The translations under genes and the position numbers were made by a program. A stretch of DNA of 64,000 nucleotides from Chthoniobacterales bacterium (GTDB lineage: Bacteria > Verrucomicrobiota > Verrucomicrobiia > Chthoniobacterales > Chthoniobacteraceae): the NCBI GenBank assembly GCA_038207335.1, contig JBBQZX010000011.1, positions 1 to 64,000 of the forward strand. Direction: 5' to 3'. How positions within the stretch are numbered: position 1 is the stretch's first letter; every line of letters starts with the position of its first letter. Positions 26,148 to 57,072 of the stretch are shown one piece after another. The notes below the pieces were generated by a model, which was given only the letters and a program-made list of their open reading frames with translations, was not told the DNA's origin and did no database searches.

Positions 26148-26160
26148 GAGTTGGCGGAAG

Positions 26161-27120: not shown

Positions 27121-27123
27121 CGG

Positions 27124-30828: not shown

Positions 30829-30943
30829 GAGCCACCACTTTTAGCGGAGGGAAAAAATGTTGTCGATGGGGCTTCCGGTCAATCCCTGTAGAAATCCGGT
30901 CACCAACGTGCTATGCAGGTTCCGCTCCCGAGCATTTTCTAAC

Positions 30944-32233: not shown

Positions 32234-32665
32234 TTATTTCTCGTCGTCTGGCGCGAAGTCCTTGTGGCCCTTCTCTTTTTGATCCGAAACCTTGTCGAAC
32301 ATCGCCTTCGCCTCGTCCGACTTGTCCGCTTTCACGGCCGTCTCGATCTCGTCGTAGGTCTTCTTCAACGCCGCGAGTTCGTCTTTGTATTTGGCGAGGT
32401 AAGCCGCCTTGTCCGCCGCCGGGACGTCCTTCGTCTTTGTCGGCTCCAGTTTCGCAGCGTCATCGGTGCTCTTCTTCATCTTCTCGAGCAGTGCGACGTT
32501 GTCCTCTTTTTTCGAAGCATCGCCGATCTGCTTCTTGAGCATTTTCCAGCTCTTGTTCATCGCAGACATTTCTTTCTCCAAAGGCGTTTCGTCTTCGGCA
32601 GCGACGGCAACGTGAAAGCCGAGCGACAGCACGGCGGTGAGGGTGAGAAGCGTTTTGAATTTCAT
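32234..32665 (-). CDS. Soluble cytochrome b562-like four-helix protein
   Basis: Signal peptide; LEKEM near the N-terminus and GHKDF at the C-terminus match the Met/His heme ligand positions of b562. Confidence 0.7.
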   Translation of the reverse strand: MKFKTLLTLTAVLSLGFHVAVAAEDETPLEKEMSAMNKSWKMLKKQIGDASKKEDNVALLEKMKKSTDDAAKLEPTKTKDVPAADKAAYLAKYKDELAALKKTYDEIETAVKADKSDEAKAMFDKVSDQKEKGHKDFAPDDEK

Positions 32666-32766: not shown

Positions 32767-35700
32767 TCACTCCGAACGCAGCGCCGCGATGCGGCTCCCG
32801 CGCAGCGCGAGCCGCGTCGCGAGCCAGACCCAGAAGACACATCCCGCCGCGAGCGCCGCGACAAGCAGCGACATCTCCGCGAGCGGAAAGCCGCCCGCGC
32901 GCTCTCTTAAGCCGGGCCACACCGCGAGCAGCGCGCTCCCGACACCGATCACGAGCCCGCAAATGATGAGCCAGCGATGCTCCGCGAAAACGAGCCGTCG
33001 CAACTGCCGCGGTCGAAATCCCACCGCTTCGAGAAGCCCGAATTCACTGCGTCGCTCGAGCACATTTCTGCCGACGACGATCGCGAGCCCCGCGCTCCCG
33101 AGAAGCAGCCCGAGCCCGCCGAGCACTTGGAAAATTGAGAGATAAGTATTCTCGACAGCCTGAAATTCCGCAAGCCGCCGCCACGCCAGAGTCACCGCAA
33201 ATCCGCGATCCTGCAGCGCGCGCGACAGTTCCCGAGCAACAGCCTCGCTCCCATTGGCGCCTTCGACGTTCGGCGCATCGACGAGGAAAAATCGGTATCC
33301 GCCATGCCCCGGAAATTTTTCGATGAAGTGCTTTTCCGAGATCACGACATCGCCCTGCAAAATCGAGCCCGCAAGCGTCGCGACGAGCCGCACCTCGAAT
33401 GGCTGACCGCGCTCATCTTGATACGTGAGCGTATCACCCAGCTTTTTCTGCAAAGCCCATTGTAACGTTGCTTGATCGACGATTCCCGGGATCGCGTTGT
33501 CGCCCTTCGTGTCGTCGTCGAGCTGTTCCCAACCGGATTTCGCATCGGAAAAATGGAACCGCGATTGCAGATCACCCGGCTTCACGCCGAGCAGCCGCGG
33601 ATGCAGCGCGCGATTGAGATTCAGGCAGCTCGCGTCGTCGCCAGCGAGCACGCGCATGGGCATCACACTCACTCCTGCCATCGTCTTTTCATCCAAGGCA
33701 AAGGATTCGCGGCCCTTGTCCGAATTCAGATCGTCGTAAATCGGCAGCGCCGATTCGCCCACAAGCGCGAAGCCCCCGGTCCCCGAGTCGCGCTCCATCG
33801 TCGCGCCCTGCGGTCGCTGGCGAAACGAATCGACCGCCACCACGATGAACACGCCGCTCGCCAATACGGCGATCGTCGCGAGGCTCCGTCCGCGCCGTCG
33901 CGCGGCATTGCGCGCGCCGAGTTGCGCAATGCTTTTCAGGCTTCCGTCCGCGACAGCCGCGCATCGAAGCCTCGCCAGCGCCAGGAGACATCCCCCGATC
34001 AGGAGCAGCGAGCCTGCGCCAAAAAACGCCTCCGCGCCAGACGCCGTGAACGCCAGTGCCAACGCGCCAAGAATGCCGACCACGCCACCGATGAGCGGCA
34101 GTCCCGGAATTTTTGAAACCGCGGAATTCGCGGAGGATGGTTGACGTTCGGATGAAGAAACCGACGCGTCTGTCTCGCTGATTTTCCGAGCTGCCACTTC
34201 GGATCTCTTCTTTTTCCGCCATCCGCGCGCGTCCGCGAACTCCGCGGACGTCCCTCCGAGCAGTTCCCGCGCGCTATGCCGAAACAGCCGGCGGCTCGCG
34301 AACCACATCGCCAGCAGCGCGATCAGCATGCCGGAGATAACGCCAATCGCGAGCGTCATCATGCCTGGCGCAAATACGAAATCCGTCGTGCCGACCGCAC
34401 CGCGCCAGATCGTGGCGAGCGCGCGCAGCACGAGCCTTGTGTAGATCAATGCGGCTGCGACACCCGCGACGCTCCCGATCACGGACAGCGCCGCGCCTTC
34501 AAAAAGAAACACGCGCCGCACCTGCCAGGGACGCCAACCGAGGCCGAGCAGCAGCCCTGCCTCCGCGCGACGCTGCTCGATCGAGAAGACGAAAAGCAAC
34601 CCCGTAAGCACCGCCGCCGCGACGATGAGGAAAAACGAAAAGCTCACGAACAACTGGCCAAAATCGACTGGCGCATCCGTCGCACCGAGCGCCTGCTGGC
34701 GCAGCGGGATGAAGCTCATGCCCGCCTGCTCCGGCGTCAGCTTCGCGAGGATTTGCGACGCGATCGCCTTCGCATCCGCGGGTGCCCGATATCGGATCGC
34801 GGTCAGCTCCCCCCAGCGATTCGCCCACATTTGCTGACCCATCGCGATGTTCACGAATGCCTTTGGTGTGCCGCGATATTTGTCCCAATACGCCTCGTCC
34901 TTGTCGCGAAATTTGCTCACGTCCATTTCAAAGCCGGGCTCCCATTCCCGGCAGCTTTTCTTGTCCGTGAGGCCGGGGAAATCGGGCATCCACGAGCCAT
35001 CGAGCTGCGGCTCATCCAGCGGCAAAATCGAGAGCACGGTGAACTCTCGCGACTTCTCCGTGAGCTCACGCCGCTCGCCCATCACGAAATATTTCAGCGT
35101 CACGCGGTCGCCGCTTTTCGCGCCGAGATCATCGGCGAGCCATTGGTTCAGGACGATCTCATCGTCCGCGAGTTCCGCCGGGAGAAAACCGCACGCTGCT
35201 GCGTCGATCGCCGTCACCATCGAGTAAGGCGTGCTCTTCTCGCCAACGCGGAGTTCGTTCACCAAATAAGTCAGCACATCGATCCCGCGCGGCGCGGCTT
35301 CGATGACCGGGTGATCGAGAAAAACGCGGCTCGTGCGAAGCTCTACACCTGCACTTTTTTCGAGCGGGCGCAGCTCGAGCGCGGCGTCTTCGAGCGAAAA
35401 CTGAGCGGTGACTGAGTCGCGGAAAGTTTCAGCGCGATCCTTCGCTTCCAGAAGGATCACATTCGCCTTTCCCGTCTCACCGATTTTCCCCTGCACGTCT
35501 GCGAGCGGCGCGAACACGCTGAAAGGCGGCACTTGGCTGGCGTTGAACGCGAAGCGTCCGAACTCTTGATCGCCGACCACGCGCGCGATTTTCACCCGCA
35601 CCGCGATCAACGCGTTCTCCTCGCCGGAGAGCGGTGCATCGCGTGAAAAGGCTGACGGCTTCTCGAGCCGCACAATGACCGTGTCACCGACCACGACGCC

Positions 35701-36126
35701 GAGTTGACGTGCGGTGCGCTCATTGATCGCGATGGTGCCCGGCGGCAGTTCAACCGCGGCTCTACTCGGCGACAGTTTCCAAAAGCGCTCATCCACGCCG
35801 AGCAGTTGCGCGACGTTCACGCGAGCCGAGCCATCTGCTCGTGCGACGCTTGCGCGCAGCATCAACAGCGGTGCCAATGGAATACGGCCGGGCGATTGAA
35901 TTGCGTCGGCAAGGCTGGCGCGGAAAAGGCGTTCGCCGCCGACGAATGCAAAATCCACGCGTCCGACGCGTAACTCCGCCTGCCGTCGCAGCGTCGCTTT
36001 CACCGAATCACCCACGAGCAGCGAGCCCGTGAGCACCATCGCGCCTAGCGCCGCTCCGAGCACGACGCCGATATGCGTGCGCCAGTAAAAGCCGAGGCTC
36101 CGGCGGATGAGCGTCGCGGCACTCAT
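32767..36126 (-). CDS. Large duplicated MacB/FtsX-type ABC permease (1119 aa)
   Basis: Two FtsX-like repeats (EQRRAEAGLLLGLGW; LERRSEFGLLEAVGF) with large periplasmic loops. Confidence 0.9.
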   Translation of the reverse strand: MSAATLIRRSLGFYWRTHIGVVLGAALGAMVLTGSLLVGDSVKATLRRQAELRVGRVDFAFVGGERLFRASLADAIQSPGRIPLAPLLMLRASVARADGSARVNVAQLLGVDERFWKLSPSRAAVELPPGTIAINERTARQLGVVVGDTVIVRLEKPSAFSRDAPLSGEENALIAVRVKIARVVGDQEFGRFAFNASQVPPFSVFAPLADVQGKIGETGKANVILLEAKDRAETFRDSVTAQFSLEDAALELRPLEKSAGVELRTSRVFLDHPVIEAAPRGIDVLTYLVNELRVGEKSTPYSMVTAIDAAACGFLPAELADDEIVLNQWLADDLGAKSGDRVTLKYFVMGERRELTEKSREFTVLSILPLDEPQLDGSWMPDFPGLTDKKSCREWEPGFEMDVSKFRDKDEAYWDKYRGTPKAFVNIAMGQQMWANRWGELTAIRYRAPADAKAIASQILAKLTPEQAGMSFIPLRQQALGATDAPVDFGQLFVSFSFFLIVAAAVLTGLLFVFSIEQRRAEAGLLLGLGWRPWQVRRVFLFEGAALSVIGSVAGVAAALIYTRLVLRALATIWRGAVGTTDFVFAPGMMTLAIGVISGMLIALLAMWFASRRLFRHSARELLGGTSAEFADARGWRKKKRSEVAARKISETDASVSSSERQPSSANSAVSKIPGLPLIGGVVGILGALALAFTASGAEAFFGAGSLLLIGGCLLALARLRCAAVADGSLKSIAQLGARNAARRRGRSLATIAVLASGVFIVVAVDSFRQRPQGATMERDSGTGGFALVGESALPIYDDLNSDKGRESFALDEKTMAGVSVMPMRVLAGDDASCLNLNRALHPRLLGVKPGDLQSRFHFSDAKSGWEQLDDDTKGDNAIPGIVDQATLQWALQKKLGDTLTYQDERGQPFEVRLVATLAGSILQGDVVISEKHFIEKFPGHGGYRFFLVDAPNVEGANGSEAVARELSRALQDRGFAVTLAWRRLAEFQAVENTYLSIFQVLGGLGLLLGSAGLAIVVGRNVLERRSEFGLLEAVGFRPRQLRRLVFAEHRWLIICGLVIGVGSALLAVWPGLRERAGGFPLAEMSLLVAALAAGCVFWVWLATRLALRGSRIAALRSE

Positions 36127-36166
36127 CTGGCGTGAGTTGCGGCTCTTGGGAGCGCGCTTCGCATTC

Positions 36167-36850
36167 TCATTTTTGCTCCTCGAGTTTCCCGTCCACGATC
36201 TCGAAAACGCGCTGCATCCGCCGCGCGATTTCCTGCGCGTGCGTGACCACTATGAGCGTCACACCGCGCGCTTTGTTGAGCTCCACAAGCAAGTCGATGA
36301 GCCGCTCCGCGGAGACGCGATCGAGCGCCCCGGTCGGCTCGTCCGCGAGCAACAACTTCGGTTCGTTGATGAGCGCGCGCGCCACCGCCACACGCTGGCG
36401 CTCACCGCCGGAAAGCTCGCCGGGCCGATGAGCGAGGCGACGCCCGAGTCCGACACTTTCCAGCAAATTCTCCGCGCGCTTTTTCAACACCGCGTTATCG
36501 CAGCCACTGCGCGCGAGCGTCGGGATGAGCACGTTCTCCAAAATCGTGCACTGCGGCAGCAGGTGGTGGAGCTGGAAAATAAACCCGACGGTTTCATTCC
36601 GAAACGCTGCGACCGCGCGTTCATCGAGCTGAGAAATGTCGCGCCCATCGACTTTCACCGAGCCCGAGTCCGCATGATCGAGCGCGCCCACGATGTTGAG
36701 CAACGTGCTCTTTCCAGAGCCCGAAGGCCCGAGAATCGCCGCCGTCTCGCCCGCAGCGAGCTGCCAATTCACATCGCGCAGCACCGCGACGGCGTCGCCG
36801 CCATCCGGCGCGCGATACGTTTTTGAGAGGTCGGTTATTTCGAGGAGCAT
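36167..36850 (-). CDS. LolD/MacB-type ABC ATP-binding protein
   Basis: GPSGSGKST, LSGGERQRVAVARAL, LADEPTG, VVTH. Confidence 0.95.
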   Translation of the reverse strand: MLLEITDLSKTYRAPDGGDAVAVLRDVNWQLAAGETAAILGPSGSGKSTLLNIVGALDHADSGSVKVDGRDISQLDERAVAAFRNETVGFIFQLHHLLPQCTILENVLIPTLARSGCDNAVLKKRAENLLESVGLGRRLAHRPGELSGGERQRVAVARALINEPKLLLADEPTGALDRVSAERLIDLLVELNKARGVTLIVVTHAQEIARRMQRVFEIVDGKLEEQK

Positions 36851-36873
36851 GGGTTTAGATTCAGCGATCGCGT

Positions 36874-38094
36874 TCACAAGTTCACCCATCGCTTCGCTTT
36901 CATTTCGAATCGCGGCAGCGTTCCGCTCGCGACCCGCCTCGCGGGAATCCGCAGCGTGAACGCCTGCGTCAGTGCACGCTCCAACTCGCGCGGCGCATCA
37001 TCATCGGGGCATTCGATCGCGATCGCGACCTCCGCCATTGCGCCGCGCCGCGAGACCTCCACACGATACTCCGCGATGCTCGGCATTGCGCGCACGACCG
37101 CATCGACGGCGCTCGGGTAAATGTTCACGCCGCGCACGACGATCATGTCGTCGGCGCGTCCGATGATTCCGCCATCTAGCGTGAAACTATCCACGCCCGG
37201 AATACGCCGCACGAGGTCGCCGGTGCGGTATCGCAGGAGCGGCGAAGCGGAGCGTCCAAGCGGCGTCAGCACCAGTTCGCCGATGTCGCCGATCGCTATC
37301 TGCTGGCCGGTTTCCGGCTGAATGACCTCCGCAAAATACGACTCGTCGATCACCGTCTGCGAAGCCGGATGCGCAGCATCTTCAAACGCCACTGGGCCGA
37401 CCTCCGTCATGCCGTAGTGGTCGATCACTCGCGCGCCATTCCACGCCACCGAGATGCGCTCGCGCAAATGCACCACGCTGCCGCCGGGCTCGCCTGCGAC
37501 GATGATTTTCCTCACCGCGGAACCGCCGAGATCGATCCCCTCTGCGCGCGCCGTTTCGGCCAGATGCAGCGCGTAAGTCGGCGTGCACAAAAGCACCGTC
37601 GCCTCCTGCTGGATGATCGCGCGAACCCGTGCCGCACTGCCGAGCCCGCCGCCAGGGATCGCGAGAAATCCGAGCTTTGTCGCCGCCTCGAACGCGGTCC
37701 AAAAACCGAGGAACGGCCCGAACGAAAACGCGAAGTAGATGCGGTCTCCAAAGGCCACTCCGGCGGCGCGATAAATGTGCGCCCAATTTCCGAGCAGCCA
37801 CTCCCAGCTCTCGCTCGTATCGAGCCACACAAGCGGGCACCCGGTCGTGCCCGTCGTCTGACAGAAGCGCGTGTAGCGCTCGACAGGAAAAGTGAGGTTC
37901 GTGCCGTACGGCGGATATGCCGCCTGATCCGCGACTAGTTCGCTTTTCCTGGTGAAAGGGACGCGAGCCGAGAAATCCTCAGCGCTCGCGAGATTCTCAG
38001 CGGTCACTCCGCACTCCGCGAGCCGAGCCGTGTAAAAGCGATTTCCCGGCGTGATCGCGGCAATGATCGCGCGAAGTTTCTCGAGCTGCTTCAT
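36874..38094 (-). CDS. Phenylacetate-CoA ligase (PaaK) family aryl-CoA ligase
   Basis: TTGTTG.P, GEPGGS, DHYGMTEVG, LRYRTGD, GRADDMIVVRGVNIYPS, KAKR. Confidence 0.9.
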   Translation of the reverse strand: MKQLEKLRAIIAAITPGNRFYTARLAECGVTAENLASAEDFSARVPFTRKSELVADQAAYPPYGTNLTFPVERYTRFCQTTGTTGCPLVWLDTSESWEWLLGNWAHIYRAAGVAFGDRIYFAFSFGPFLGFWTAFEAATKLGFLAIPGGGLGSAARVRAIIQQEATVLLCTPTYALHLAETARAEGIDLGGSAVRKIIVAGEPGGSVVHLRERISVAWNGARVIDHYGMTEVGPVAFEDAAHPASQTVIDESYFAEVIQPETGQQIAIGDIGELVLTPLGRSASPLLRYRTGDLVRRIPGVDSFTLDGGIIGRADDMIVVRGVNIYPSAVDAVVRAMPSIAEYRVEVSRRGAMAEVAIAIECPDDDAPRELERALTQAFTLRIPARRVASGTLPRFEMKAKRWVNL

Positions 38095-38127
38095 CGGCTC
38101 GCGGCGGATGCCTAGGCCATCGGCGTG

Positions 38128-38697
38128 CTACGCGCTTGGCTGCTCCGCGGCCGGCGGCATGGGGAAAGGCTTGTGTGGAACTGCAGCGGGTTTGTAGAGC
38201 GTGACGAGACAGCCCCCCGCCGCAGCCAGCGCGATGCCGAGCCAGAACGGCAGCGGGATCGTGCCCCAGCCGCCGGCAGGTGGATCTTTGATCAAGGCCA
38301 CCGCAGCATTCACGATCGGAGCGCCCGCAAAAATGATGCTCATGATGACCGGCACATAAGCCGCCGTCTGCCCCTTCGGAGCCGCGCCAAATGCGAGCAG
38401 CACGCCAAACGCCCCGATCGCTCCCGCGACGCCCGCGATCAGCGACCACCAAGCCCCGGTGGCCGGGAACGACCAAGTCGCGCCGTTCATTTTCAGCACC
38501 GCCAGCGGCGCGAGCACGGCGACGAGAAAGTAGGCGACGCCGACCAGCAAAAAGGCTTTATAGCGGCCATTCGCCTGGTCGCTCATGCCCATCTGCCCGA
38601 TGTGCAGAAGGATGCCATAGACGCCCCACATCACGACGGTGAGGAAGGCGAAGGCGAGCCAGGTGAGGGAACTTTGTGGAGCGTTGGTCGGTGGCAT
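38128..38697 (-). CDS. Small membrane protein (possibly DMT/EamA-like)
   Basis: About five hydrophobic helices; WGVYG, APIVN. Confidence 0.7.
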   Translation of the reverse strand: MPPTNAPQSSLTWLAFAFLTVVMWGVYGILLHIGQMGMSDQANGRYKAFLLVGVAYFLVAVLAPLAVLKMNGATWSFPATGAWWSLIAGVAGAIGAFGVLLAFGAAPKGQTAAYVPVIMSIIFAGAPIVNAAVALIKDPPAGGWGTIPLPFWLGIALAAAGGCLVTLYKPAAVPHKPFPMPPAAEQPSA

Positions 38698-38747
38698 TTT
38701 GGTTTGAGGTTTTGGTGCTTGTAAAAAGTCGGAATCGTCCGGTTGGC

Positions 38748-39212
38748 TTAGGCACTTCCTGCGCCCGCGAATGGCTTCAAGAGTGCCTCGGGAGCCGGTT
38801 CGATCTTTGCGCGGATGCTCGCCGGCACAGGCACGGGCATGAGCCGGCCGGTCGCCTCATCCACCCGCGCGCAGACCGCCGCGATCGACCCGCGCGCGAT
38901 CTCGAGGCCGTCGGAGACTTTGCGAAAAATGAACTGGTAACGGATCGAGCGGGACCGGACCTCCGCGACCAGCAGATGAATTTCCACCTCATCCTCGAAG
39001 CGCAGCGGCCGCATGTAATCGCAAGCAGCGTGGACTCGCGGCCAGCCAGTCGTGCCGCCCTCCCCCGCGCCGTGGATCGAGAAACCGAGCGAGCGGAAAA
39101 ACGAGTGCTCCGCCGCCTCCATCATGCGGAAAAAATTCGCGAAATGGACGATGCCCGCCATGTCGGTTTCCGCGAACTCGACGCGGTGGATGTGCTTGAA
39201 CTCGTAGGGCAT
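38748..39212 (-). CDS. Hot-dog acyl-CoA thioesterase (4-HBT/YbgC family)
   Basis: RVEFAETDMAGIVHFANFFRMME; DYMRPLRFED. Confidence 0.92.
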   Translation of the reverse strand: MPYEFKHIHRVEFAETDMAGIVHFANFFRMMEAAEHSFFRSLGFSIHGAGEGGTTGWPRVHAACDYMRPLRFEDEVEIHLLVAEVRSRSIRYQFIFRKVSDGLEIARGSIAAVCARVDEATGRLMPVPVPASIRAKIEPAPEALLKPFAGAGSA

Positions 39213-39224
39213 CGCCGAAGCAGA

Positions 39225-40526
39225 TTACGGAGCGGCGTTTTCGGCGTCCATGATTTCGCACGTCGCCGCGAGGAAACGCGCGGCCAGCCGTGGCATCGAA
39301 TATTCGCGTCCCACCGCTGCGCGTCCGCGCTTCCCGAATTCGCGCGCTTTTTGCGGATCGTTCAGCAGCGACTCCCACGCATCCGCGAGCGCCGTCGCGC
39401 TGCCCGGTTCGAACAAAATCCCGCCGCCCGTCGCCGCGATGATCTCGGGAAACGAAGCGGTCTCCGGCTGCACCACGGGAACTCCGGCCGCGAGTGCCTC
39501 AATGAGAAAAAGCCCGAACGCCTCACCGTAACTCGTCGGCACCGACAGCAGCGTGAGGCGCTGGAGAAAGGCCACCTTTTCCTCACGGCTCACATTTGGC
39601 AGAAACTCGGCATCGCCCGCGCAGCCAGCCTCCGCGAGCTTGCGGCGCATTGTGGCGACATAGCGCTCGTCCTCCGCTGTCATGGCGCCTGCGACGCGCA
39701 GTTTCACGCCGGAAAATGTGGCGCGCTTTTTCAGGAGAATGAACGCGTCGATCACGAGCCCGAGTCCCTTGCCTTCGATCATTCGTGCGAGAAAACCGAT
39801 CGCCGGAACGATCGGCGCGCCTCCGATTTCCGCAAAATCCGCGAGGTCAATTCCGTTCGGAATCACGCGCACTTGCGCCTCCGGCAGGCGCATCCGCCGC
39901 TGCATCAGTTCCGCATAAAATCGACTCGGTGCGATAAACCGCCCGACATCGCGCGACCGCTCGGCGAGCGTCTCCCATGAGCGCGCGCGCCACGGCTCCG
40001 GCAGACCGTCGAGAAAAACATCTTCACCCTGAAGCGAACAGATTACCGCCACGCCGAGCTCCCGCCGCAGCCGCCGCGCGAGTCCGGCGAGCAGCGCGGT
40101 CGAGAGCCACACCGCATCGGGCCGATGCTCGCGCAGCCAGTCGATGAGCTTGTCGAGTTCCTTCGCCTGATTTCCCTCCTCACCGCGCAGCATGGAAAAT
40201 GTGAGCTCTCCGACTTCGGCAGTCGCCGTCATGCCGGTCTGCCGCGCCGCCAGATTCAAGAGGCCGCGGGCATTCAACAGGCGGTCGAGCCAGCGCGGCG
40301 TGTGGCGGAAAAGCGCGAGCTTTTGCTGCAAATAGACATTCACGCCGCCGAAAAAGATCGGCGACTCCGGGCTCGCCGCGCCTTCCTCCAACGTGAGCGG
40401 CAGATACATCGGCAGCATCACCGCATCGTGCCCCTGCCGGATGAGTTCCTTCGCCAGCGCATTGTCCCTCATGCAGACGCCGCAGTAGTAGCTGCCTGTG
40501 CCAGGTGTGATGAGGACGATCCTCAT
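39225..40526 (-). CDS. Glycosyltransferase family 4
   Basis: VIPNGIDL, ARMIEGKG, EAFGLFLIEALAAGVPVV; unusual N-terminal YYCGVCMRD. Confidence 0.9.
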   Translation of the reverse strand: MRIVLITPGTGSYYCGVCMRDNALAKELIRQGHDAVMLPMYLPLTLEEGAASPESPIFFGGVNVYLQQKLALFRHTPRWLDRLLNARGLLNLAARQTGMTATAEVGELTFSMLRGEEGNQAKELDKLIDWLREHRPDAVWLSTALLAGLARRLRRELGVAVICSLQGEDVFLDGLPEPWRARSWETLAERSRDVGRFIAPSRFYAELMQRRMRLPEAQVRVIPNGIDLADFAEIGGAPIVPAIGFLARMIEGKGLGLVIDAFILLKKRATFSGVKLRVAGAMTAEDERYVATMRRKLAEAGCAGDAEFLPNVSREEKVAFLQRLTLLSVPTSYGEAFGLFLIEALAAGVPVVQPETASFPEIIAATGGGILFEPGSATALADAWESLLNDPQKAREFGKRGRAAVGREYSMPRLAARFLAATCEIMDAENAAP

Positions 40527-40562
40527 TGGAAGAGCGGAAAAATGTTCAATGCCGCAGGCATC

Positions 40563-43228: not shown

Positions 43229-43755
43229 GGGTGCAAAACCTCGACGATGCGCGCCAGCACTTGATTTCCAGCGTCGAGCAGTACGTTGCAACGGCCATAA
43301 AACCGCTCGGCATCCGGCGCGTCGAAATGCTCGCGCATGACGGAGTCGGGGCCGAGTTGAATGAACGCTTTCGGATCGCTCCGATACGTGAGCCCGAAAT
43401 GATTCAGCAGCCCTCCAAGCGGCAGATGCGCCTCGACGATGAGCCCACGCAAATCCTCGGGAAACGCTTCGAGATTGATCTCGATCGCGCCGTATTCCAC
43501 CGGCTTTCCGGTCTCCTCAATGTGCAGCACGACCTCGCGCCGATAGGTGGCGACGGCGTGTTCCCGGTGCAGGACTTCGAGCACGATCGAACCGCGATGA
43601 AACGCCTCGAGGCGCGATGTCATGTCGCCATCATGGACGAGCAGCGAACGATACGGCTCGGGCATTTCGGCTCCGTCGATCGTCTCGAAATGCGGAAGCG
43701 ACTCGCCGTTGTTTTGGCGGAACAAGCCGAGCGGGTGAAGGAGATCGGCGGTCAC
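43225..43755 (-). CDS. Chorismate lyase (UbiC/UTRA-fold)-like protein
   Basis: LLVHDGDMTSRLE, YRREVVL, PLGGLL pattern of chorismate pyruvate-lyases. Confidence 0.65.
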   Translation of the reverse strand: MTADLLHPLGLFRQNNGESLPHFETIDGAEMPEPYRSLLVHDGDMTSRLEAFHRGSIVLEVLHREHAVATYRREVVLHIEETGKPVEYGAIEINLEAFPEDLRGLIVEAHLPLGGLLNHFGLTYRSDPKAFIQLGPDSVMREHFDAPDAERFYGRCNVLLDAGNQVLARIVEVLHP

Positions 43756-45092
43756 GTGTACCGCGCTCCCCTGTGCTGCGGCAGGAAGAACGCGTGCAGC
43801 AGCGTGTCCACTTTTAGCAACGCCTCGCGCGTGAGCACGAGCCAGTCGCCCTGCTCACTGATGAGCCCGCAGCGCTTGAGATCGTCCCACTCCGGACGGA
43901 AGCGCTCGCCGACTTTGACGCCGAATTTTTCCACAAAATACGACTGGCTCACGCGTCCGAGTTTCATCTGCAGGATGAGCTCGCGAATCATGCGCTCTTC
44001 CTCGGTCGTGGTCATCGCGCGGGAGATGGGCAACTCGCCACGATGGATCGCTTCGACGTATTGCGTGAACTCCGCGATGTTTTGAAAATGTGTCCCGGCG
44101 ATGTGCGAAAATGACGCAACTCCGAGCCCGACGAGGTCCGCTCCGGTCCACAAGTCGTCGCGATAAACGAACTTTGTTTTCTGCGGATCGCGCACCGCGG
44201 TGTAGCCGCTCGTCACCGTATAGCCGGCCTTTTCCAGCTCGCGAAAAGCCTCGTCCACCCACCCGCGTTTCGTGTGCCAGTCGGCGACGGGCGCGGTGAG
44301 TTTTCCCTCGGCTTTCATCTCTTTGTAGATGCCCGTGTTGTAGGGCACTTCCATCTGGTAGATCGTGACGCTGTCGGGCAGCAACTCGATCGTTTTGCGG
44401 ATGTTCTCGCTCCAGTTTTCATCGGTCTCCTCGACCATGCCGGAGATGAGATCGATGTTGATCTGCGGGAAGCCGATGGACCGCGCGTAGTTGTAAGCGC
44501 GATAGATTTCGGCGGTGCGATGGGCGCGCCCGTTGATCTCCAGAATGTGGCTGTCGAAATTTTCAACGCCGAGTGAAAGTCGCGTGATACCGATGTCGCG
44601 GAGCGCGGCGAGCTTCTGCTCGGTGAGCGTGCCAGGCTCGGCCTCGAAGGCGACTTCCTCCGCCTCGTCCCACGGCAGCAGAGCCTTCATATTGTCGGTG
44701 AGATACGTGAGCTGCGCGACGGAGAGGTAGCTCGGCGTGCCGCCGCCGAAATAAACGAACTTTGGCTTCCGCCCGCGGATGAGCGGCGACGCGGCGTAGA
44801 TTTTCATCTCTTCAATCCCGGCATCGAGATAGCCGCGGATGTCATCCGCATTTTTGTCTGTATAGACGCGGAAGTAGCAGAAATGGCAGCGCTTCCGGCA
44901 GAAAGGGATGTGGAAATAAACGCCCAGCGGCACGTCGGGCGTCGCCGGCTGGTCGAGCAGGCCGCGGACGCGCTGCGCGGTTTCGGCGTCCCAGTAGGAA
45001 AATGGCGGGTAGTTCGCGACGAAGTAATTGCCGACCTCGGTTTTGTCGTGGTCCTTTTCGTGGTCGAGAATTTCAGTGATTTCAGTGCTCAT
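43752..45092 (-). CDS. HemN-like (class C) radical SAM enzyme
   Basis: YFHIPFCRKRCHFC, YFGGGTPS, RLSLGVE, NIDLISG, GLGVASFS. Confidence 0.9.
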   Translation of the reverse strand: MSTEITEILDHEKDHDKTEVGNYFVANYPPFSYWDAETAQRVRGLLDQPATPDVPLGVYFHIPFCRKRCHFCYFRVYTDKNADDIRGYLDAGIEEMKIYAASPLIRGRKPKFVYFGGGTPSYLSVAQLTYLTDNMKALLPWDEAEEVAFEAEPGTLTEQKLAALRDIGITRLSLGVENFDSHILEINGRAHRTAEIYRAYNYARSIGFPQINIDLISGMVEETDENWSENIRKTIELLPDSVTIYQMEVPYNTGIYKEMKAEGKLTAPVADWHTKRGWVDEAFRELEKAGYTVTSGYTAVRDPQKTKFVYRDDLWTGADLVGLGVASFSHIAGTHFQNIAEFTQYVEAIHRGELPISRAMTTTEEERMIRELILQMKLGRVSQSYFVEKFGVKVGERFRPEWDDLKRCGLISEQGDWLVLTREALLKVDTLLHAFFLPQHRGARYT

Positions 45093-46252
45093 TTTTTAGG
45101 TGCTCCGGTGGTGGCTTCGGCAGCCGTGGCGGCTCCGAAGCAGTAGAGATTTCCATCTTCCGCCCCGACGACGATGCGGCCATCCGCGACAGCGGGGGAA
45201 GAGGTGATCGCCGCGCCAATTTCGTAGGCCCAGCGCTCTTTGCCGTCGGCGAGGCCGATGCAGTAAAGTCGGCCGTCGTCGCAGCCGACGACGATCGCGT
45301 CGGTGCAGACGACGGGTGAACTATCGATCGGTCCGCGGGCTTGAAATTTCCAGACCGACTTGCCGCTCTCGCGGTCGATGCAGTGCAGTTGCTTGTCGCG
45401 CCCGCCGATGATGACGCGATCCGCGGTGACTGCGGCGGAGGAAAAATACGGAAAATTGCGGTCGCGATATTTCCACAGGATCGCGCCCTTTTGCGGATCG
45501 AATGCCAGGACTTGGTTGCCGTAATTTCCGACGTATCCGATGCCCCCGGAGATGGCGACGGAGGAGGCGATGTAGGCTTCCGAATCGATCTGGCGCAACT
45601 CCGCGCCGTCCTTGAGCTGAAGGACGTGGATGGCCGCGTCACAGCCGCCGAACACGATTTCACCGGTGGAAAATAGGGCGGGAGCGCCGTTGATGTAGTT
45701 GTCCGTCTCGTGCGTCCAGACGGCTTTGCCAGTCGCGGCATCGACGCAGTGCAGGCTGGCATCGTAACTGCCGACGAGAATCCAAGTCCCCTCTCCCGCG
45801 GGACTTTTCGCGTGATTCGCACCACCGAGGATTTTGTCGCCGGTGGTGTATTTCCACTTTTGCGCGCCGCTTGCGGCATCAAGCGCGTACAGGCTGGAAT
45901 CGGAGGAGCCGATGTAGATGACGCCGTCGAGCGCGAGCGGTGTGGCCTCGATCGCGCCTTCGGTTTTGAAGGTCCACAGCTCTTTGCCGTCGTTGAGATT
46001 CAGGGCGTGGACGACACCAGCATCGTCGCCGAAATAGACGCGTCCGTCGGCGATGGCGGCAGCGCCCTTGATGGGTTTTCCGGCGGTGAAGGTCCACGCG
46101 AGATTGGCGCTCGCAGGGGCGGGCATGGCTGCGATGCCCTGTAACTGCGGGCCTCCGCGGTGCATGGGCCAGTCGGCGACTTGGGCGAGGGTCGAGAGTG
46201 CGAAGAGATGGAGTCCGGCGAGCGCTACCCGGAGTTTGCGCTTCGCGCTCAT
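45089..46252 (-). CDS. Secreted PQQ/BamB-like beta-propeller protein
   Basis: Signal peptide, DWPMHRGG, about eight repeats of GSxDxxLYALDAxxGxxxW. Confidence 0.88.
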   Translation of the reverse strand: MSAKRKLRVALAGLHLFALSTLAQVADWPMHRGGPQLQGIAAMPAPASANLAWTFTAGKPIKGAAAIADGRVYFGDDAGVVHALNLNDGKELWTFKTEGAIEATPLALDGVIYIGSSDSSLYALDAASGAQKWKYTTGDKILGGANHAKSPAGEGTWILVGSYDASLHCVDAATGKAVWTHETDNYINGAPALFSTGEIVFGGCDAAIHVLQLKDGAELRQIDSEAYIASSVAISGGIGYVGNYGNQVLAFDPQKGAILWKYRDRNFPYFSSAAVTADRVIIGGRDKQLHCIDRESGKSVWKFQARGPIDSSPVVCTDAIVVGCDDGRLYCIGLADGKERWAYEIGAAITSSPAVADGRIVVGAEDGNLYCFGAATAAEATTGAPKK

Positions 46253-47397
46253 GCTAGGGCCTCCGCATAGAGTTGTTCAAAGTCGGCGGCGGCGATCGGA
46301 CGCGGATTGAAGGTCGCGGTCCATTGTTGCGCGGCTTCGGATGCGAGTTGAGGGATCATCGCGCCGTCGATTGAGATCGGAGTGCGGAGGCCGGCGAGCA
46401 CGAGGATTTCTTCGAGACGCGCGAGGAGTTCTTCGATCGAGCCGATGCCCGCAGCTGCGGCGTGTTCGAGGTAATGCGCACGGGCCGCGGGATCGGCGGC
46501 ATTGAAACGCACGACAGCGGGCAGCATCACGCCGACGGCCTGACCATGGATGGTCCCGAGATGCGCGGTGAGCGGATTTGCCGCAGAGTGCGCCGCACCG
46601 AGCATCGAGTTCTCAATCGCAGTACCGCCAAATGCGGCGCCGAGCTGCATCATGGCGCGTGCCTCGAGGTCGGCGGGGTCGCGTAAGACACGCTCGATTC
46701 CCGACATGCAGAGCCGGAATGCCTCGCGCGAAAACATCGCGGAAAGCGGCGTGCGCTTTTTTGTCACGGCGGTTTCGAGCGCGTGTGCGAGAGCGTCGAT
46801 CCCTGTGCAGGCGGTCACTCGCGCGGGTTGCGAGACGGTGAGCAGCGGGTCGAGGATCGCCACGCGCGCGGCGGCCTTCGGATCGCCGCACGCCAGTTTG
46901 AGATGCGTCGCTTCATCGGTGATGAGTGCGAACGATTGGCACTCGCTGCCGGTGCCGGAAGTCGTCGGGACGGCGATGAGCGGCAGCATCGGCTTCGTGG
47001 CTTTGCCGATGCCGATGTAATCCTGCATCCGTCCGCCATTCGTCAGCAGAAAGTTGCAGCCCTTCGCCGTGTCCATGCTGCTGCCGCCGCCGAGGCCGAT
47101 GATGAAGTCGATGTCCGCCTGCCGAGCCGCTTCGACACAGCGTTCGACGTCGCCGGTCGCGGGATTTTCATGCACCTCGTCGAAGACAGTAACGTGCAGA
47201 CCGGCTGCTTCGAGAAAGGTGATCGCGCGGCTCGGATGGCCTGCGGCAGCGATGCCTTTGTCGGTGACGAGCAGGCCGTGTTTTCCACCAAAGTCGCGCG
47301 CGAGGCTGCCGATTTGCTCGAGTGCGTCTTCGCCCGAGACGATGCGCGTGCGCGGCTGGTAATCGAACGCGGCGAGTATGGATGCGGAGCGATGCAC
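46249..47397 (-). CDS. Iron-containing alcohol dehydrogenase
   Basis: GLGGGSSMDTAKG, PTTSGTGSE, DALAHALE, AHS, HGQAV. Confidence 0.93.
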   Translation of the reverse strand: MHRSASILAAFDYQPRTRIVSGEDALEQIGSLARDFGGKHGLLVTDKGIAAAGHPSRAITFLEAAGLHVTVFDEVHENPATGDVERCVEAARQADIDFIIGLGGGSSMDTAKGCNFLLTNGGRMQDYIGIGKATKPMLPLIAVPTTSGTGSECQSFALITDEATHLKLACGDPKAAARVAILDPLLTVSQPARVTACTGIDALAHALETAVTKKRTPLSAMFSREAFRLCMSGIERVLRDPADLEARAMMQLGAAFGGTAIENSMLGAAHSAANPLTAHLGTIHGQAVGVMLPAVVRFNAADPAARAHYLEHAAAAGIGSIEELLARLEEILVLAGLRTPISIDGAMIPQLASEAAQQWTATFNPRPIAAADFEQLYAEALA

Positions 47398-47427
47398 GTT
47401 TTTCTTAACCAGCGCCTTCGTGGTTCT

Positions 47428-48858
47428 TTAGACGGCCCGCTCGATCGAGCGGCGTTTGTAGAGGAACTCGAACATGTTGCCCTCGTGGGGCTGGTCCCAT
47501 GAGATTTTCGTCGTGGAGATCGGGCCGAGATTTAAGCGCTCGATGAGCGGCGAATCAAGCAACTGCGCGGTAAACGCGGGATCGCGTGTGATCGCGGTGA
47601 CGACGAGTGACGGCCCGATTTTCGCGAGCATCTCGGACTGAGGAACCGTGACGACGCTCGCGAACGGGCAGAGATACTCGCGGTTTGCGAGCGGGTGAGC
47701 GAATGAGTCGCAGAGCACGATCGTGGGACGCAGGTAGGTGCCGTTTTCTTCCACCTTTCGTGAGCCGGCGCGATATTTTGCGGTCACGTCCGTCGCGCCA
47801 GGAGTTTGGAGGCCATCCTCGATCGCTGCGTCGATGAACTGCGCCATCTTCGGATTAGCGAAGCCGGAGAGGCGCGCGCTTTCGTCGTCAGGCGCGGTCG
47901 GTAAAATGGGGCCGAGTTTTTGGGCGAGCGCCTCGGCGATCTCGGTGGCATATTTTGGGACGACGACGGCGGAGGCGTTCACGCAGGAGCGGCCGCCGTT
48001 GTCGGAGATCGAGCCGGCGATGAGGTCGATGTATTCGGGCCAGTTTTCGATGGCGTCGTCGCCGATGAGGATTTTTGAAAAGCCGGGGCCATGGACGGAG
48101 AATTTCGCGTTGCCGCGGTACTGCTCGACGGTATTCGCGTCGCCGAAAATGAGCGCGCGTCCGCACAGCTTCATCACTTCGCCCGAGCCCTCGTGATCGG
48201 TCGGATAGAAGCCGAACGCCTCGCGCGGCGCGCCCGCGGCGATGAACGCCTGAATGAGCCGATACGGCGTCCACGGCTCCTCGCGGCCGGGCTTAATGAC
48301 AACCGGCGTCTTCAGCGCGATGGCCGGCAGCCATAGCGAATTTACCGCCGGAGAGTTGCTCGGCATCACGAGCCCCAGCGCATTTGTGGTCGGGTAAAAC
48401 GACACCGCCGCTCCGCAATGCTCGCCGTATCCGCGATCGAGCACGTCTAGAGGCAGGCCGCGTGTGAGGCCGTTCAGCACGGTGCGCACATTCGTCAACG
48501 CGAAGTGAATCTTCGCCATGTTCCGCCGCACCATCACATGCGGCAGGCCGCTCGTGGCGCTCAGCGTCTCGATGTATTGCTGCGCCGATTGCGTGTGGCC
48601 CTGGTCGCCGAGCGGCAGTTCGCCATTGAGAAAATGCTCACCCGCTTTCGCCGAAATCTCGATCAGTTCGGCGACCGAAAACTTCTTCAACGCCGCGCGC
48701 GCCTCGCCGATGCGCGCCATGTCTTTTCTCAAAATCCCGGCGCCGACCTGGCTGACGCGCGCCATCGGTTGGCCGGTGCGGTGATTGACGACTTCGACGG
48801 TGTCGAGGCTTTCGTAGGGCTGTCCGCGGCGCAGCGCGGGGAGGTGCGGGAGATTCAT
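47428..48858 (-). CDS. ALDH-superfamily protein, EhpG/LuxC (acyl-reductase)-like
   Basis: PSNSP, KPGREEP, catalytic GGRSCVNAS; HGPGFSK replaces the ELGGK general-base motif. Confidence 0.8.
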   Translation of the reverse strand: MNLPHLPALRRGQPYESLDTVEVVNHRTGQPMARVSQVGAGILRKDMARIGEARAALKKFSVAELIEISAKAGEHFLNGELPLGDQGHTQSAQQYIETLSATSGLPHVMVRRNMAKIHFALTNVRTVLNGLTRGLPLDVLDRGYGEHCGAAVSFYPTTNALGLVMPSNSPAVNSLWLPAIALKTPVVIKPGREEPWTPYRLIQAFIAAGAPREAFGFYPTDHEGSGEVMKLCGRALIFGDANTVEQYRGNAKFSVHGPGFSKILIGDDAIENWPEYIDLIAGSISDNGGRSCVNASAVVVPKYATEIAEALAQKLGPILPTAPDDESARLSGFANPKMAQFIDAAIEDGLQTPGATDVTAKYRAGSRKVEENGTYLRPTIVLCDSFAHPLANREYLCPFASVVTVPQSEMLAKIGPSLVVTAITRDPAFTAQLLDSPLIERLNLGPISTTKISWDQPHEGNMFEFLYKRRSIERAV

Positions 48859-48951
48859 GCGAAGGGCCGAGATTTATACGTCTGCGTATTAAATTGCGCA
48901 ACGGGTTTTCTTCCCGCGGCCCGCTTCACCGCGCCGCTGGCGCGAGGCGGC

Positions 48952-49722
48952 TCAGGCCGGAAAATCCGCCGCCCAGGAGTCATCCGGCTCGTATCCGGTG
49001 GCCACCATAATGTCGCCGTAAGCCTCGCGGAACGCAGTCGCGACGCGGAGATCGAAATGATTCCGCCAGTCACCGGGCGTCCCTTTTCGTCCATGCGAAG
49101 CGCTGTCCTCCGTGCCGAACTGGCGCCCGAATTTTTTCTCGAAGCTGTTCTGCTCGATCGCGGACTGAAGCTCCTTTTCGGCGATCGGCAGCGCGAGCCG
49201 ATCGCGCAAGATTTCGCGCAATCGCGCGGCGGGATCGGCGGTAATGTCCTCGTATCGGCACAGCATTTCACCATGCCCGATCCACGACCGCTGGATGCGG
49301 GCGGAGCGCGCGAGGCCATGGTGGATGATGTGCGCTAGCCCCTCGGATTTGGAAAGCTGGGCGAGCGCTGCGCGCTGGCTCGCTACCTGCCCGGCGGCAT
49401 CGAGCGGGTGGGTGCCGCGAAGGCTAAAATACCGCGACACGAGCGTGTCGCGCAGGTCGCGGATGACGATGAAGCGCGGGACTTGGGCAAGGCCGGGATA
49501 GCCGAGGAATTCCTCGCGAGTCATGAAAGCGGCGGAGTAGATGCGACCGGCTTCGTAGCGAAAGTTCGCGAGGTCCGCGCCGAAACGCGGCGCGACGCGT
49601 TTGCCGAAGAGTGTGCGAAGGACGTCGTCGATCCACGTCGAGCCGGCCTTGGCGTGCGTCAAGAAAAAGAACGACTGCACGGATTCCGGCCCCTTCGATT
49701 TAAAAAACTTGAGCAGGGCCAT
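48952..49722 (-). CDS. PAPS-dependent sulfotransferase
   Basis: 5'-PSB HAKAGSTW, 3'-PB RDLRDTLVS, C-terminal RKGTPGDWRNHF. Confidence 0.9.
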   Translation of the reverse strand: MALLKFFKSKGPESVQSFFFLTHAKAGSTWIDDVLRTLFGKRVAPRFGADLANFRYEAGRIYSAAFMTREEFLGYPGLAQVPRFIVIRDLRDTLVSRYFSLRGTHPLDAAGQVASQRAALAQLSKSEGLAHIIHHGLARSARIQRSWIGHGEMLCRYEDITADPAARLREILRDRLALPIAEKELQSAIEQNSFEKKFGRQFGTEDSASHGRKGTPGDWRNHFDLRVATAFREAYGDIMVATGYEPDDSWAADFPA

Positions 49723-49740
49723 GCGGTCGGCTCGCGGGCT

Positions 49741-50808
49741 CTAGTAAACCCCTTCGATGATCGTCTTCTCCATCGCGCCGAAAGGCCGCACCTCGGCGAC
49801 GCCGTCCCACGCATACGGCGCGCGCGGCTTGCGGCGGAGCGCCTCGTCGCGCTCGAGGAAGCGCGGCATGAAGAATTCCTTCGTCAAAGTGGTGAGTTCC
49901 ACGCGGCCCCAGGTGTCGTAGTCCACAGTCGTCGCCGTGTCTTTCGGATCCACCACACGGAGCACGGCGCGCGGCTGCGGCGCGTAGTAGGTGATGGAAA
50001 AATTGTCCTCCTTCGTCAGCGGGACCGAGGCCGCGAGGCCCATGAGCGTGTTACCGTAGGTGGGGTAAAATCCGATGCGATTTTCCAGCACCTCCTCCAC
50101 GATGAATCGCACATATTGCGGCAGCATCGTGGTGCCGCCGCAGAAGACGCCGCGGATACCGGATTCAAAGACGTCCACCTTTTCCGCGAGCGCCTCGAGG
50201 AGCTTCGGCGTGGTGAAAAGGCCGCTCACTTTTCGATGCTTCAGAATCATCGCGGCCTGATCGACGACGTGCTCCATGTAGGCCTTTGCCTCGTCGAATT
50301 TCTTGTTCGAGATGAGCTTCTTCACCCACCGCGGATCGAGGTCGATGAAGTAGCACGACGAGCCGCGCACATGAGCGAGATGCTCGATCGCGAGGCGCAG
50401 CCGGCGCGGGCCGGTCGGGCCCATCATGAGCCACGCACCACCGCGCGGAAAATGCTCGTCGGCGATCTTTTCGCTGAACTCCGAGTAGTCGGTCTTGTAG
50501 TCGGTCCAGCCGATGCGCTGCTTCGGCATCCCGGTCGTGCCGCCGGTCTCGAAGATATTGAAAGGCTGGCCTTTATACTGCGCCGGCACCCACACCTCGG
50601 GCTGGAGATCGCGCAGCCATTCGTCCTGGAAATGCGGGAACTTTTTGACGTCGTCGATGGTCTGGATTTCGGCGCGCGGATCGAAATTCTTCTTCGCCCA
50701 ATCGAGCCAAAACGGACACCCCGTCTCGGGAGAAAAATGCCACGCGACGATCTCGCGGAGATGGGAGTCGAGCTGCTGCCTGGCTTCGTCGGGAGTGATC
50801 TCGGTCAT
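49741..50808 (-). CDS. EhpF-like adenylate-forming protein (truncated ANL / LuxE-like)
   Basis: WHFSPETGCPFWL, ETGGTTGMPK, YGNTL, GRVELTTLTKEFFMPRFLERD; recalls the phenazine-modifying protein EhpF. Confidence 0.75.
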   Translation of the reverse strand: MTEITPDEARQQLDSHLREIVAWHFSPETGCPFWLDWAKKNFDPRAEIQTIDDVKKFPHFQDEWLRDLQPEVWVPAQYKGQPFNIFETGGTTGMPKQRIGWTDYKTDYSEFSEKIADEHFPRGGAWLMMGPTGPRRLRLAIEHLAHVRGSSCYFIDLDPRWVKKLISNKKFDEAKAYMEHVVDQAAMILKHRKVSGLFTTPKLLEALAEKVDVFESGIRGVFCGGTTMLPQYVRFIVEEVLENRIGFYPTYGNTLMGLAASVPLTKEDNFSITYYAPQPRAVLRVVDPKDTATTVDYDTWGRVELTTLTKEFFMPRFLERDEALRRKPRAPYAWDGVAEVRPFGAMEKTIIEGVY

Positions 50809-53000: not shown

Positions 53001-53130
53001 TTTCGCGGAGGCGCAAGCTACCGACTCGCGCCAGTTTTCCAAATCGAATGGTAATTTCCTAGATCGCGGCGCGTGCGCGGGTAGGCAAAAAATCTCGACG
53101 GTGCGCGAAGCGGGCGCGCAGATTCAGCGG

Positions 53131-55650: not shown

Positions 55651-55658
55651 CCGGATTT

Positions 55659-57057: not shown

Positions 57058-57072
57058 GGATTTAATTTCGGT

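Follow-up and report, generated by a model that had tools for sequence, protein, structure and literature searches.

Does a gene cluster with the enzymes of an aromatic pathway stand on its own, or does it serve a larger system? The question is raised by a locus of a Chthoniobacterales bacterium (phylum Verrucomicrobiota) on contig JBBQZX010000011.1 of assembly GCA_038207335.1. Open reading frame mapping of the window (i.e. the whole 64,000-nucleotide stretch of DNA analysed) places 15 genes between 50808 and 32767, all on the minus strand and with short gaps, as a preliminary description had stated. That description read them as a self-contained pathway to a chorismate-derived aromatic product with its own exporter. 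Our results reveal that the cluster is two nested modules: a core module (i.e. the propeller PQQ1, a GT4 glycosyltransferase and a MacB-type ATP-binding cassette (ABC) system) and an aromatic module inside a subset of the genomes that carry it. The core goes with a family of scattered, secreted propellers resembling pyrroloquinoline quinone (PQQ) proteins and is nearly always accompanied by one of two partners, the aromatic module or an iron–sulphur (Fe–S) wire. The cluster is part of a large envelope system of Verrucomicrobia and Planctomycetes, on the favoured reading a redox system, two modules of which are interleaved in the window.

Core module, propellers and partner modules

The double-FtsX permease, which marks the core, is present in 82/251 Planctomycetota and 42/301 Verrucomicrobiota (the genomes are mostly assemblies from metagenomes, and absence throughout means not found with the given query). 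The EhpF-like gene of the aromatic module occurs in 6/301 Verrucomicrobiota (one of them distant) and 77/251 Planctomycetota, 54 of these at 50% identity or more and 23 distant (31–36%). Permease and EhpF coincide in 52 of the 54 close-EhpF Planctomycetota and in one of the 23 distant-EhpF genomes. The distant subfamily (27–36% identity; L097–L100, L108) stands alone in 23/251 Planctomycetota and is not tied to the system; the close clade shows 50–90% identity within. Aromatic enzymes are missing from 30/82 permease-bearing Planctomycetota and 37/42 Verrucomicrobiota, in which PQQ1 and usually GT4 remain, and in EhpF-negative genomes PQQ1, GT4 and the ABC pair stay together as a block. Because this block occurs without EhpF and the radical S-adenosylmethionine (SAM) enzyme, the ABC system is not a component of the aromatic pathway. 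The phrase 'with its own exporter' does not survive these counts: the permease is not confined to biosynthetic genomes, those 30 and 37 lacking a close EhpF. A GT4 orthologue was found in five of ten EhpF-negative ABC genomes tested and not found in the other five. Invariant residues of the core include the N-terminal CxxCxRD motif of GT4 (27 sequences), C392 and C834 of the permease and Cys204 of PQQ1.

The propellers, treated as filler in the preliminary description, are central to the system. The genome studied here encodes 26–27 of them, most with a signal peptide and the motif D/E/N-W-P-x-W/F-R-G-P; they are scattered, mostly as orphan genes away from catabolic operons. With at most nine candidate regions scored per genome, PF13360 matched three times or more in each of the 42 permease-bearing Verrucomicrobiota. 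Among 41 relatives, 19/19 with EhpF have 6–30 propeller matches, up to four of which come from the system's own genes, and 21/22 without EhpF have 0–2. As a tracker of propeller expansion EhpF failed at the phylum level; the permease is the better marker, yet 14 propeller-rich genomes are without it.

Like PQQ quinoproteins, BamB and the TIGR04528 'acido-empty-quinoproteins', these proteins have an eight-bladed PQQ-repeat fold. The structure model of PQQ1 (predicted local distance difference test score (pLDDT) 95.5) is an eight-bladed propeller, with BamB, tetrathionate hydrolase and YxaL as the nearest natural folds. Unlike PQQ quinoproteins and TIGR04528, the propellers score under the curated cut-offs (for PQQ dehydrogenases, TIGR03075 and TIGR03074), show no conserved PQQ-binding residues and share no invariant catalytic residue among 23 aligned paralogues; BamB, moreover, is single. 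In the larger propellers PQQ530 and PQQ800, conserved polar loops (dense and invariant across 59 sequences of PQQ530) are typical of a putative binding site. A search for pqqC gave no match in this genome, but the control query matched nowhere either. At L158:4810-7764 (G000:C8), in a genome without a pqqC match, lies one propeller that is truly quinoprotein-like and is fused to cytochrome c.

The wire comprises genes for an NHL protein, a twin-arginine ferredoxin (NapG-like), a polytopic Fer4_5 protein (NapH-like), a membrane-anchored propeller, a NuoE–NuoF fusion and a 2Fe–2S/GltD-like protein; the names NapG and NapH are our assumption, not model matches. The NHL protein has invariant vicinal cysteines (GFsGCCNP; L126:66-1016 and orthologues) and a twin-arginine signal in L187, L188 and L189. 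With the polytopic Fer4_5 protein as marker, the wire is present in 29/30 of the Planctomycetota that have the ABC system but no EhpF, in 5/54 close-EhpF genomes and in 1/167 with neither (251 genomes). Among the 82 ABC-positive Planctomycetota, 77 contain exactly one module, four both and one none. In 66 Verrucomicrobiota picked by permease, EhpF or propeller status, the marker occurs in 37/38 ABC-positive, EhpF-negative genomes, 1/14 with EhpF and 0/14 that are propeller-rich and ABC-negative. Fisher tests overstate the association, kin genomes not being independent, and are not used as support. The wire lies upstream of GT4/PQQ1/ABC, in the same position as the aromatic module, in 7/20 and 5/20 EhpF-negative loci. 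Twenty further marker loci comprise 15 complete wires, one cut by a contig end, three without fused NuoEF and one with two Fe–S genes locally and NuoEF elsewhere. Wire genes were not found in the genome studied here.

In a GT4 tree of 47 rows, built by a quick method and leaving out G177 and rows with <70% coverage or stops, the module label changes seven times (at least three forced by strong branches) against 14.5 times in shuffles, which indicates several module swaps, with clustering. The wire resembles NapGH/NosGH/MauMN conduits and NuoEF diaphorases in its polytopic Fer4_5 protein, twin-arginine ferredoxin, NuoE plus NuoF and 2Fe–2S/GltD-like protein. Unlike the NapGH, NosGH and MauMN conduits, it is without an adjacent nitrate, N2O or amine terminal enzyme and ends on a membrane-anchored PQQ-like propeller. 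In the literature searched (most subscription journals lay outside the search), no description was found of this alternation, nor of a characterised pathway with the composition of the cluster, as had been asserted from the sequence.

Terpene genes (i.e. a DUF116-fused polyprenyl synthase, a PF00432 toroid protein, a cyclase like squalene–hopene cyclase (SHC) with a DADD motif, an Fe–S protein, a CobW GTPase and a GcvH-like protein) occur in single operons with the wire and core in G188, G200, G127, G329 and G345, and are joined to the EhpF module in L031, L083, L258 and L263. In this genome they lie outside the window, on contigs C3 and C7. In a small sample, a cyclase orthologue was found in 5/5 wire genomes, 2/5 other EhpF genomes and 0/10 permease-negative genomes. 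Among 80 cyclase-seeded metagenome loci, mostly short, the permease is present in three and EhpF in one, so physical linkage to the terpene genes is not the rule in this lineage. An SHC-like clade in the Planctomycetes–Verrucomicrobia–Chlamydiae (PVC) group and other phyla is described as uncharacterised, probably with a non-squalene precursor, in the available text of PMC12414744 and PMC7306690, which makes no tie to propellers, wire or aromatic module. The cyclase here, in which both SHC domains are present, likely belongs to that clade.

Extent and enzymes of the aromatic module

Among 40 relatives searched, 18 bear EhpF, and 18/18 of these also match other genes of the block strongly at the DNA level. 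Co-occurrence of the cluster genes is therefore confirmed, far above chance, and conservation extends across two phyla, the gene order being kept in Planctomycetota: PQQ800, PQQ530, importer, EhpF, EhpG, iron-containing alcohol dehydrogenase (Fe-ADH), PQQ1, radical SAM, lyase, halogenase, GT4, thioesterase, EamA-like, PaaK-like, ABC. Upstream partners in 80 EhpF loci, many of which end at contig ends, are PQQ800 (43), PQQ530 (45), a major facilitator superfamily (MFS) importer (27) and a sodium-solute symporter (13). In this genome the upstream part (i.e. two large secreted propellers and the importer) sits on contig C5, so the cluster as first drawn is incomplete. The MFS importer has its nearest relatives among aromatic acid/H+ symporters (TIGR00895, E 2e-19, under the cut-off). 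Coupled to an importer and secreted propellers and alternating with a wire, the cluster does not fit the earlier framing as self-contained secondary metabolism.

The sulphotransferase lies between the EhpF- and EhpG-like genes, which are adjacent in most loci. It was matched in one other genome among the matches listed, with 70 weaker matches outside that tally, which marks it as an accessory insertion and removes sulphation as a pathway step. At the edge of this insertion, the 93-bp gap upstream of the EhpG-like gene (48858-48950) contains a GC-rich inverted repeat and an AT-rich stretch. PQQ2 is present at its site in some relatives and absent in others. Phenazine (phz) core genes were found neither among the cluster genes of the window (Pfam/NCBIfam) nor among recurrent neighbours in the 80 loci; they were not searched for genome-wide. 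CbiX, tyrA and aroA near Fe-ADH in some Verrucomicrobiota were taken as mere neighbours.

The EhpF-like protein matches PDB EhpF (E 1.6e-43 over residues 15-355, full length) and is the most conserved protein of the aromatic module (62–67% identity to five distant loci) in a family of at least 8000 clusters at 90% identity. In a same-genus genome its gene carries in-frame stops (G008:C2:191605-192606; assembly 54% complete). The EhpG-like protein has only remote PDB relatives (best E 1.6e-10). It retains Cys292, invariant in 44 sequences, and carries HGPGxSK at the site of the general-base Glu of aldehyde dehydrogenases (ALDH), and for these two reasons would fit an acyl-thioester reductase. 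Together the pair can reasonably be regarded as a candidate ATP- and NAD(P)H-dependent aryl-acid reductase. In this they resemble EhpF/EhpG (D-alanylgriseoluteic acid) and GriC/GriD, i.e. an adenylating enzyme followed by an ALDH-fold reductase: in the available text of PMC10179220, GriC adenylates and GriD reduces 3-amino-4-hydroxybenzoate (grixazone), and in that of PMC11278526, ehpF and ehpG are adjacent in a phenazine operon. Unlike those systems, the mapped loci contain no phenazine or aminohydroxybenzoate core genes, and the pair forms a clade of its own, much more strongly conserved and linked to propellers, importer and ABC. The metal ligands of the Fe-ADH (D201, H205, H270 and H284) are conserved in 36 sequences.

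The radical SAM enzyme has HemN and NocN as PDB relatives and contains CxxxCxxC and the HemN C-terminal domain; it scores under the cut-offs of the HemN, ChuW/HutW and HemW models. Its orthologue was found in 4/42 genomes tested, exactly the close-EhpF ones. The halogenase-like enzyme matches PDB 3E1T (E 1.3e-58), with Lys72 and GWFWxIP conserved in 17 sequences and the GxGxxG, WxWxIP and Lys features all present; we take the aligned Lys of 3E1T to be catalytic. Remote matches link it to the QhpG/LodB/GoxB maturases. Flavin halogenation is predicted for it or, given these matches, possibly another flavin reaction.

The chorismate-lyase label of the 43225 protein is likely but weaker than the others. 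The protein has no Pfam match. ESM Atlas relates it at 0.97 to clusters in which 11–19% of members carry Chor_lyase or Rv2949c-like domains, the profile match to PDB 2NWI is weak (E 0.005), and a single-sequence structure model (pLDDT 46) is too poor for a fold match. Across 19 orthologues the motifs MT..L, RE.V, PLG, R and E are invariant; presumably they correspond to UbiC residues. This lyase type occurs in 41/54 close-EhpF Planctomycetota, and its gene lies next to the radical SAM gene even in dispersed clusters. Among five lyase-less genomes, a close halogenase is present in three and a PaaK-like ligase in three. The PaaK-like ligase itself matches PaaK models at E 2e-56, under the cut-off. 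The EamA-like membrane protein has no Pfam match and five hydrophobic segments, its nearest named Atlas cluster being EamA (0.92; 27% of members).

The window and related loci

The genes for Fe-ADH, PQQ1, the radical SAM enzyme, the chorismate-lyase-like protein, the halogenase-like enzyme and PQQ2 form a run in which each overlaps the next by 4 bp (five overlaps), which bears out the translational coupling of six genes by ATGA/GTGA overlaps reported earlier; the halogenase-like gene has a GTG start at 43228. The remaining gaps are 18, 93, 30, 36, 12, 50 and 33 bp, followed by one of −4 or +23 bp, according to which start is taken for the ABC ATPase, and one of 40 bp. Pfam and NCBIfam agree with the family labels first assigned, apart from the weaker lyase label, and no NCBIfam equivalog reaches its own cut-off (Table 1).

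Table 1. Genes of the cluster and its downstream neighbour, with module assignments (positions in the window).
Feature	Module or role	Position	Strand	Basis
EhpF-like adenylating enzyme, 355 aa	Aromatic	49741..50808	-	PDB EhpF match
Sulphotransferase	Accessory insertion	48952..49722	-	PF00685
EhpG/GriD-like ALDH-fold acyl reductase	Aromatic	47428..48858	-	PF00171
Iron-containing alcohol dehydrogenase (Fe-ADH)	Aromatic	46249..47397	-	PF00465
PQQ1, secreted eight-bladed propeller	Core; partner of ABC system	45089..46252	-	Structure model and neighbourhood
HemN-like (class C) radical SAM enzyme	Aromatic	43752..45092	-	PF04055+PF06969
Chorismate-lyase-fold protein (likely)	Aromatic; dispensable in some genomes	43225..43755	-	ESM Atlas, weak 2NWI match
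Flavin-dependent halogenase-like enzyme	Aromatic	41978..43228	-	PDB 3E1T
PQQ2, secreted propeller	One of expanded paralogues; optional at site	40563..41981	-	PF13360
GT4 glycosyltransferase	Core (common, not obligatory)	39225..40526	-	PF00534
4HBT/YbgC-type thioesterase	Aromatic	38748..39212	-	PF13279, PF03061
Five-helix EamA/DMT-like membrane protein	Aromatic; candidate exporter of neutral form	38128..38697	-	ESM Atlas
PaaK-like aryl-CoA ligase	Aromatic	36874..38094	-	PF00501+PF14535
LolD/MacB-type ABC ATPase	Core	36167..36889	-	Pfam/NCBIfam; neighbourhood
Double-FtsX (MacB/LolCE-type) permease, 1119 aa	Core marker	32767..36126	-	PF02687 twice, PF12704
Cytochrome b562-like secreted protein	Outside the limits first drawn	32234..32665	-	PF07361

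The b562-like gene follows the permease in close relatives (adjacent in L109 and L111; in continuous DNA matches in G005, G008, G012 and G013) and was not seen in the Planctomycetota loci compared for gene order. Upstream, genes for a GlcD-like FAD oxidase (50857-52287) and a secreted protein of unknown kind (52284-53000), both on the minus strand with a −4 overlap, run into the cluster; the GlcD-like gene was rejected as a member, adjoining EhpF in one fetched relative only (L119). A FabV-type trans-2-enoyl-CoA/ACP reductase (52441-54342, plus strand, coding from about 53130) diverges from these upstream genes. Farther out are a planctomycete-type DUF1552/DUF1592-like gene set (54538-58821, minus strand), recognised by eye, and an ordinary sugar-uptake locus (23919-32128; GH2-like glycosidase, sugar ABC transporter, galactokinase-like gene and XylR-type regulator) with labels partly by eye.

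The EhpF module of L104 (G325:C48) is immediately preceded by an unbroken series of at least nine propeller genes and the halogenase gene. Five loci of verrucomicrobial type (L017, L019, L045, L050 and L053; 78–84% identity) come from records titled Bifidobacterium or Akkermansia muciniphila, titles that are probably automatic mislabels. A cysteine-desulphurase-like gene recurs beside GcvH-like/CobW/Fe–S genes or Fe-ADH (L201:2773-9218 in G000:C7, L016, L031, L034, L065 and L270) and hints that the system handles sulphur or metal clusters. No tie to the SAO selenoprotein system emerged from the available text of bioRxiv 10.1101/2022.07.06.499078.

Readings of the system and their meaning

A redox shuttle is the simplest reading, because of the alternation with the wire, the aromatic-acid-type importer, the ATP-driven acid reductase and the periplasmic end proteins. 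The aromatic module and the Fe–S wire would then do the same job, linking the NAD(P)H of the cytoplasm to the propellers of the periplasm by a transfer of reducing power. Tentatively, and with somewhat less than even confidence, we favour the view that the aromatic module synthesises an aryl acid and, spending ATP and NAD(P)H, keeps cycling it, so that it serves the periplasmic propellers as a diffusible carrier of reducing power that is stable to oxygen.

Intact motifs support the logic proposed earlier (chorismate to aryl acid, aldehyde and alcohol), and it is reasonable to infer a route through 4-hydroxybenzoate, its CoA ester and a halogenated, methylated acid. On a small scale, the lyase would convert chorismate to 4-hydroxybenzoate and the PaaK-like ligase would form the CoA thioester, which would be halogenated, receive a C1 unit from the radical SAM enzyme and be released by the thioesterase as the free aryl acid. 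In the cycle, the EhpF-like enzyme would adenylate the acid, the EhpG-like enzyme would reduce it by way of a Cys thioester, giving the aldehyde, and Fe-ADH would then yield the alcohol. The neutral form would leave through the EamA-like protein or by diffusion, the PQQ800/PQQ530 pair would reoxidise it and pass electrons to the core, and the acid would re-enter by the MFS or sodium-solute importer. The core would probably load or activate a lipid-linked component from the associated terpene genes. Carrier synthesis would be low-level and recycling high-flux; codon adaptation agrees weakly, with high values for MFS (0.78), EhpF (0.72) and PQQ530 (0.70) and low ones (0.56–0.58) for lyase, halogenase and ligase, against a genome median of 0.60 and a 90th percentile of 0.71. 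Halogenases require oxygen and Fe–S wires are oxygen-sensitive, which would explain which genomes carry which module.

Several observations weigh against the shuttle. (i) The substrate of the shuttle and the chemistry of PQQ800/PQQ530 are putative, and neither propeller shows a redox cofactor motif of a known type. (ii) It leaves the terpene genes and GT4 unexplained. (iii) Codon adaptation of EhpG (0.65) and Fe-ADH (0.66) is only moderate, and the reference set is six genes. (iv) Several EhpF loci (e.g. L015, L021 and L024) are without an importer between PQQ530 and EhpF, and the 14 permease-less, propeller-rich Verrucomicrobiota have at least six PF13360 matches each. (v) Six genomes have both modules, and the GT4 tree is quick and its labels clustered. 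(vi) PQQ530 and the wire propeller are not orthologues (28% over 116 aa), so they can be equated by analogy only; G065 and G321 have PQQ530-like genes (39–40%) directly after the wire propeller without EhpF, and these two and G212 are without fused NuoEF. (vii) The split may follow oxygen lifestyle and kinship, not equivalence. Close wire relatives are named Pontiellaceae, Kiritimatiellaceae and Lentisphaerae, whose habit we take to be anaerobic.

Nearly as likely, and a serious possibility even if it probably falls short, is that the aromatic module contributes to the biosynthesis of a cofactor or meroterpenoid. It would make a hydroxybenzyl unit, halogenated and methylated, only once, and this unit would be joined to a cyclised polyprenyl and/or glycosylated by GT4, and delivered to the propellers by ABC–PQQ1; wire genomes would have another head group or another route. 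The terpene genes, physically joined to both module types (on C3 and C7 here), speak for this, as do the cyclase orthologues in all five wire genomes and none of ten ABC-negative ones. GT4 with a MacB-type ABC would also suit a glycolipid-like cargo, heterocyst HglT/DevBCA being an analogy. The merosterol pathway has the same hydroxybenzoate, polyprenyl and class II cyclase logic: in the available text of PMC9401909, MstE cyclises geranylgeranyl-dihydroxybenzoate en route to merosterol. However, the cyclase was not found in three of five EhpF genomes tested, one of them closed, and no UbiA-type prenyltransferase is among the mapped genes. Wire genomes keep terpene genes without the radical SAM orthologue (0/38) and EhpF, which makes the terpene genes independent of the aromatic module. 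It is also unexplained on this account why an electron wire, and not another biosynthetic route, fills the gap.

The two other readings are less likely. Quite improbably, flow is reversed: the propellers are periplasmic dehydrogenases and both modules bring electrons into the cytoplasm, the wire to NAD+ and the aromatic module by way of Fe-ADH and an aryl aldehyde/alcohol couple, while EhpF/EhpG serve only to produce the carrier and to salvage it. The same profile data would fit, NapH-type proteins and NuoEF are reversible, the three wire genomes without fused NuoEF could couple to quinone, and b562 follows the permease in close relatives; but the paralogous propellers, mostly orphans, have no invariant catalytic residue, and aerobes would have simpler sinks than an ATP-dependent carrier. 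Least probable is the original view of an exported halogenated secondary metabolite, which has for it the enzyme set, the gene order and a planctomycete, Planctomycetales strain 10988, whose 3,5-dibromo-p-anisic acid is ascribed, without genetics, to the adjacent genes baaA (lyase) and baaB (halogenase) (bioRxiv 10.1101/723874), and against it the occurrence of ABC/PQQ1/GT4 without aromatic enzymes, an importer that belongs to the module, very high conservation across phyla and the alternation with the wire. The proposed two-gene baaA–baaB locus, like ours, has a chorismate-lyase-like gene adjoining a flavin halogenase gene; unlike BaaB (about 44% similar to Bmp5; bioRxiv 10.1101/723874), the halogenase here is closest to the 3E1T type. 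The anisic acid could be a shunt product.

The shuttle may be extended to a ~30-gene PVC envelope redox system in which an ATP-driven aryl acid/aldehyde/alcohol shuttle, supplied by a dedicated halogenating pathway from chorismate, has repeatedly taken the place of an Fe–S transmembrane wire, both powering a MacB-type machine that arms dozens of 'empty' propellers with a new terpenoid-linked cofactor from an orphan SHC-like cyclase. In this full form we consider the proposal unlikely.

In brief, the system is widespread, real and undescribed in the literature searched; it fits no known kind, and each of its enzymes comes from a known family. If the two modules are equivalent, the aromatic one would be a small-molecule, ATP-paid alternative to protein wires across the inner membrane, for which no precedent was found. 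Even on the rival reading, there would be one testable context for the PQQ-like propellers, for the SHC-like clade (whose substrate is called unknown in the available text of PMC12414744) and for a conserved EhpF/EhpG clade outside antibiotic clusters. The host bacteria are abundant in soil, freshwater and the sea, and the system predicts widespread biological organohalogen.

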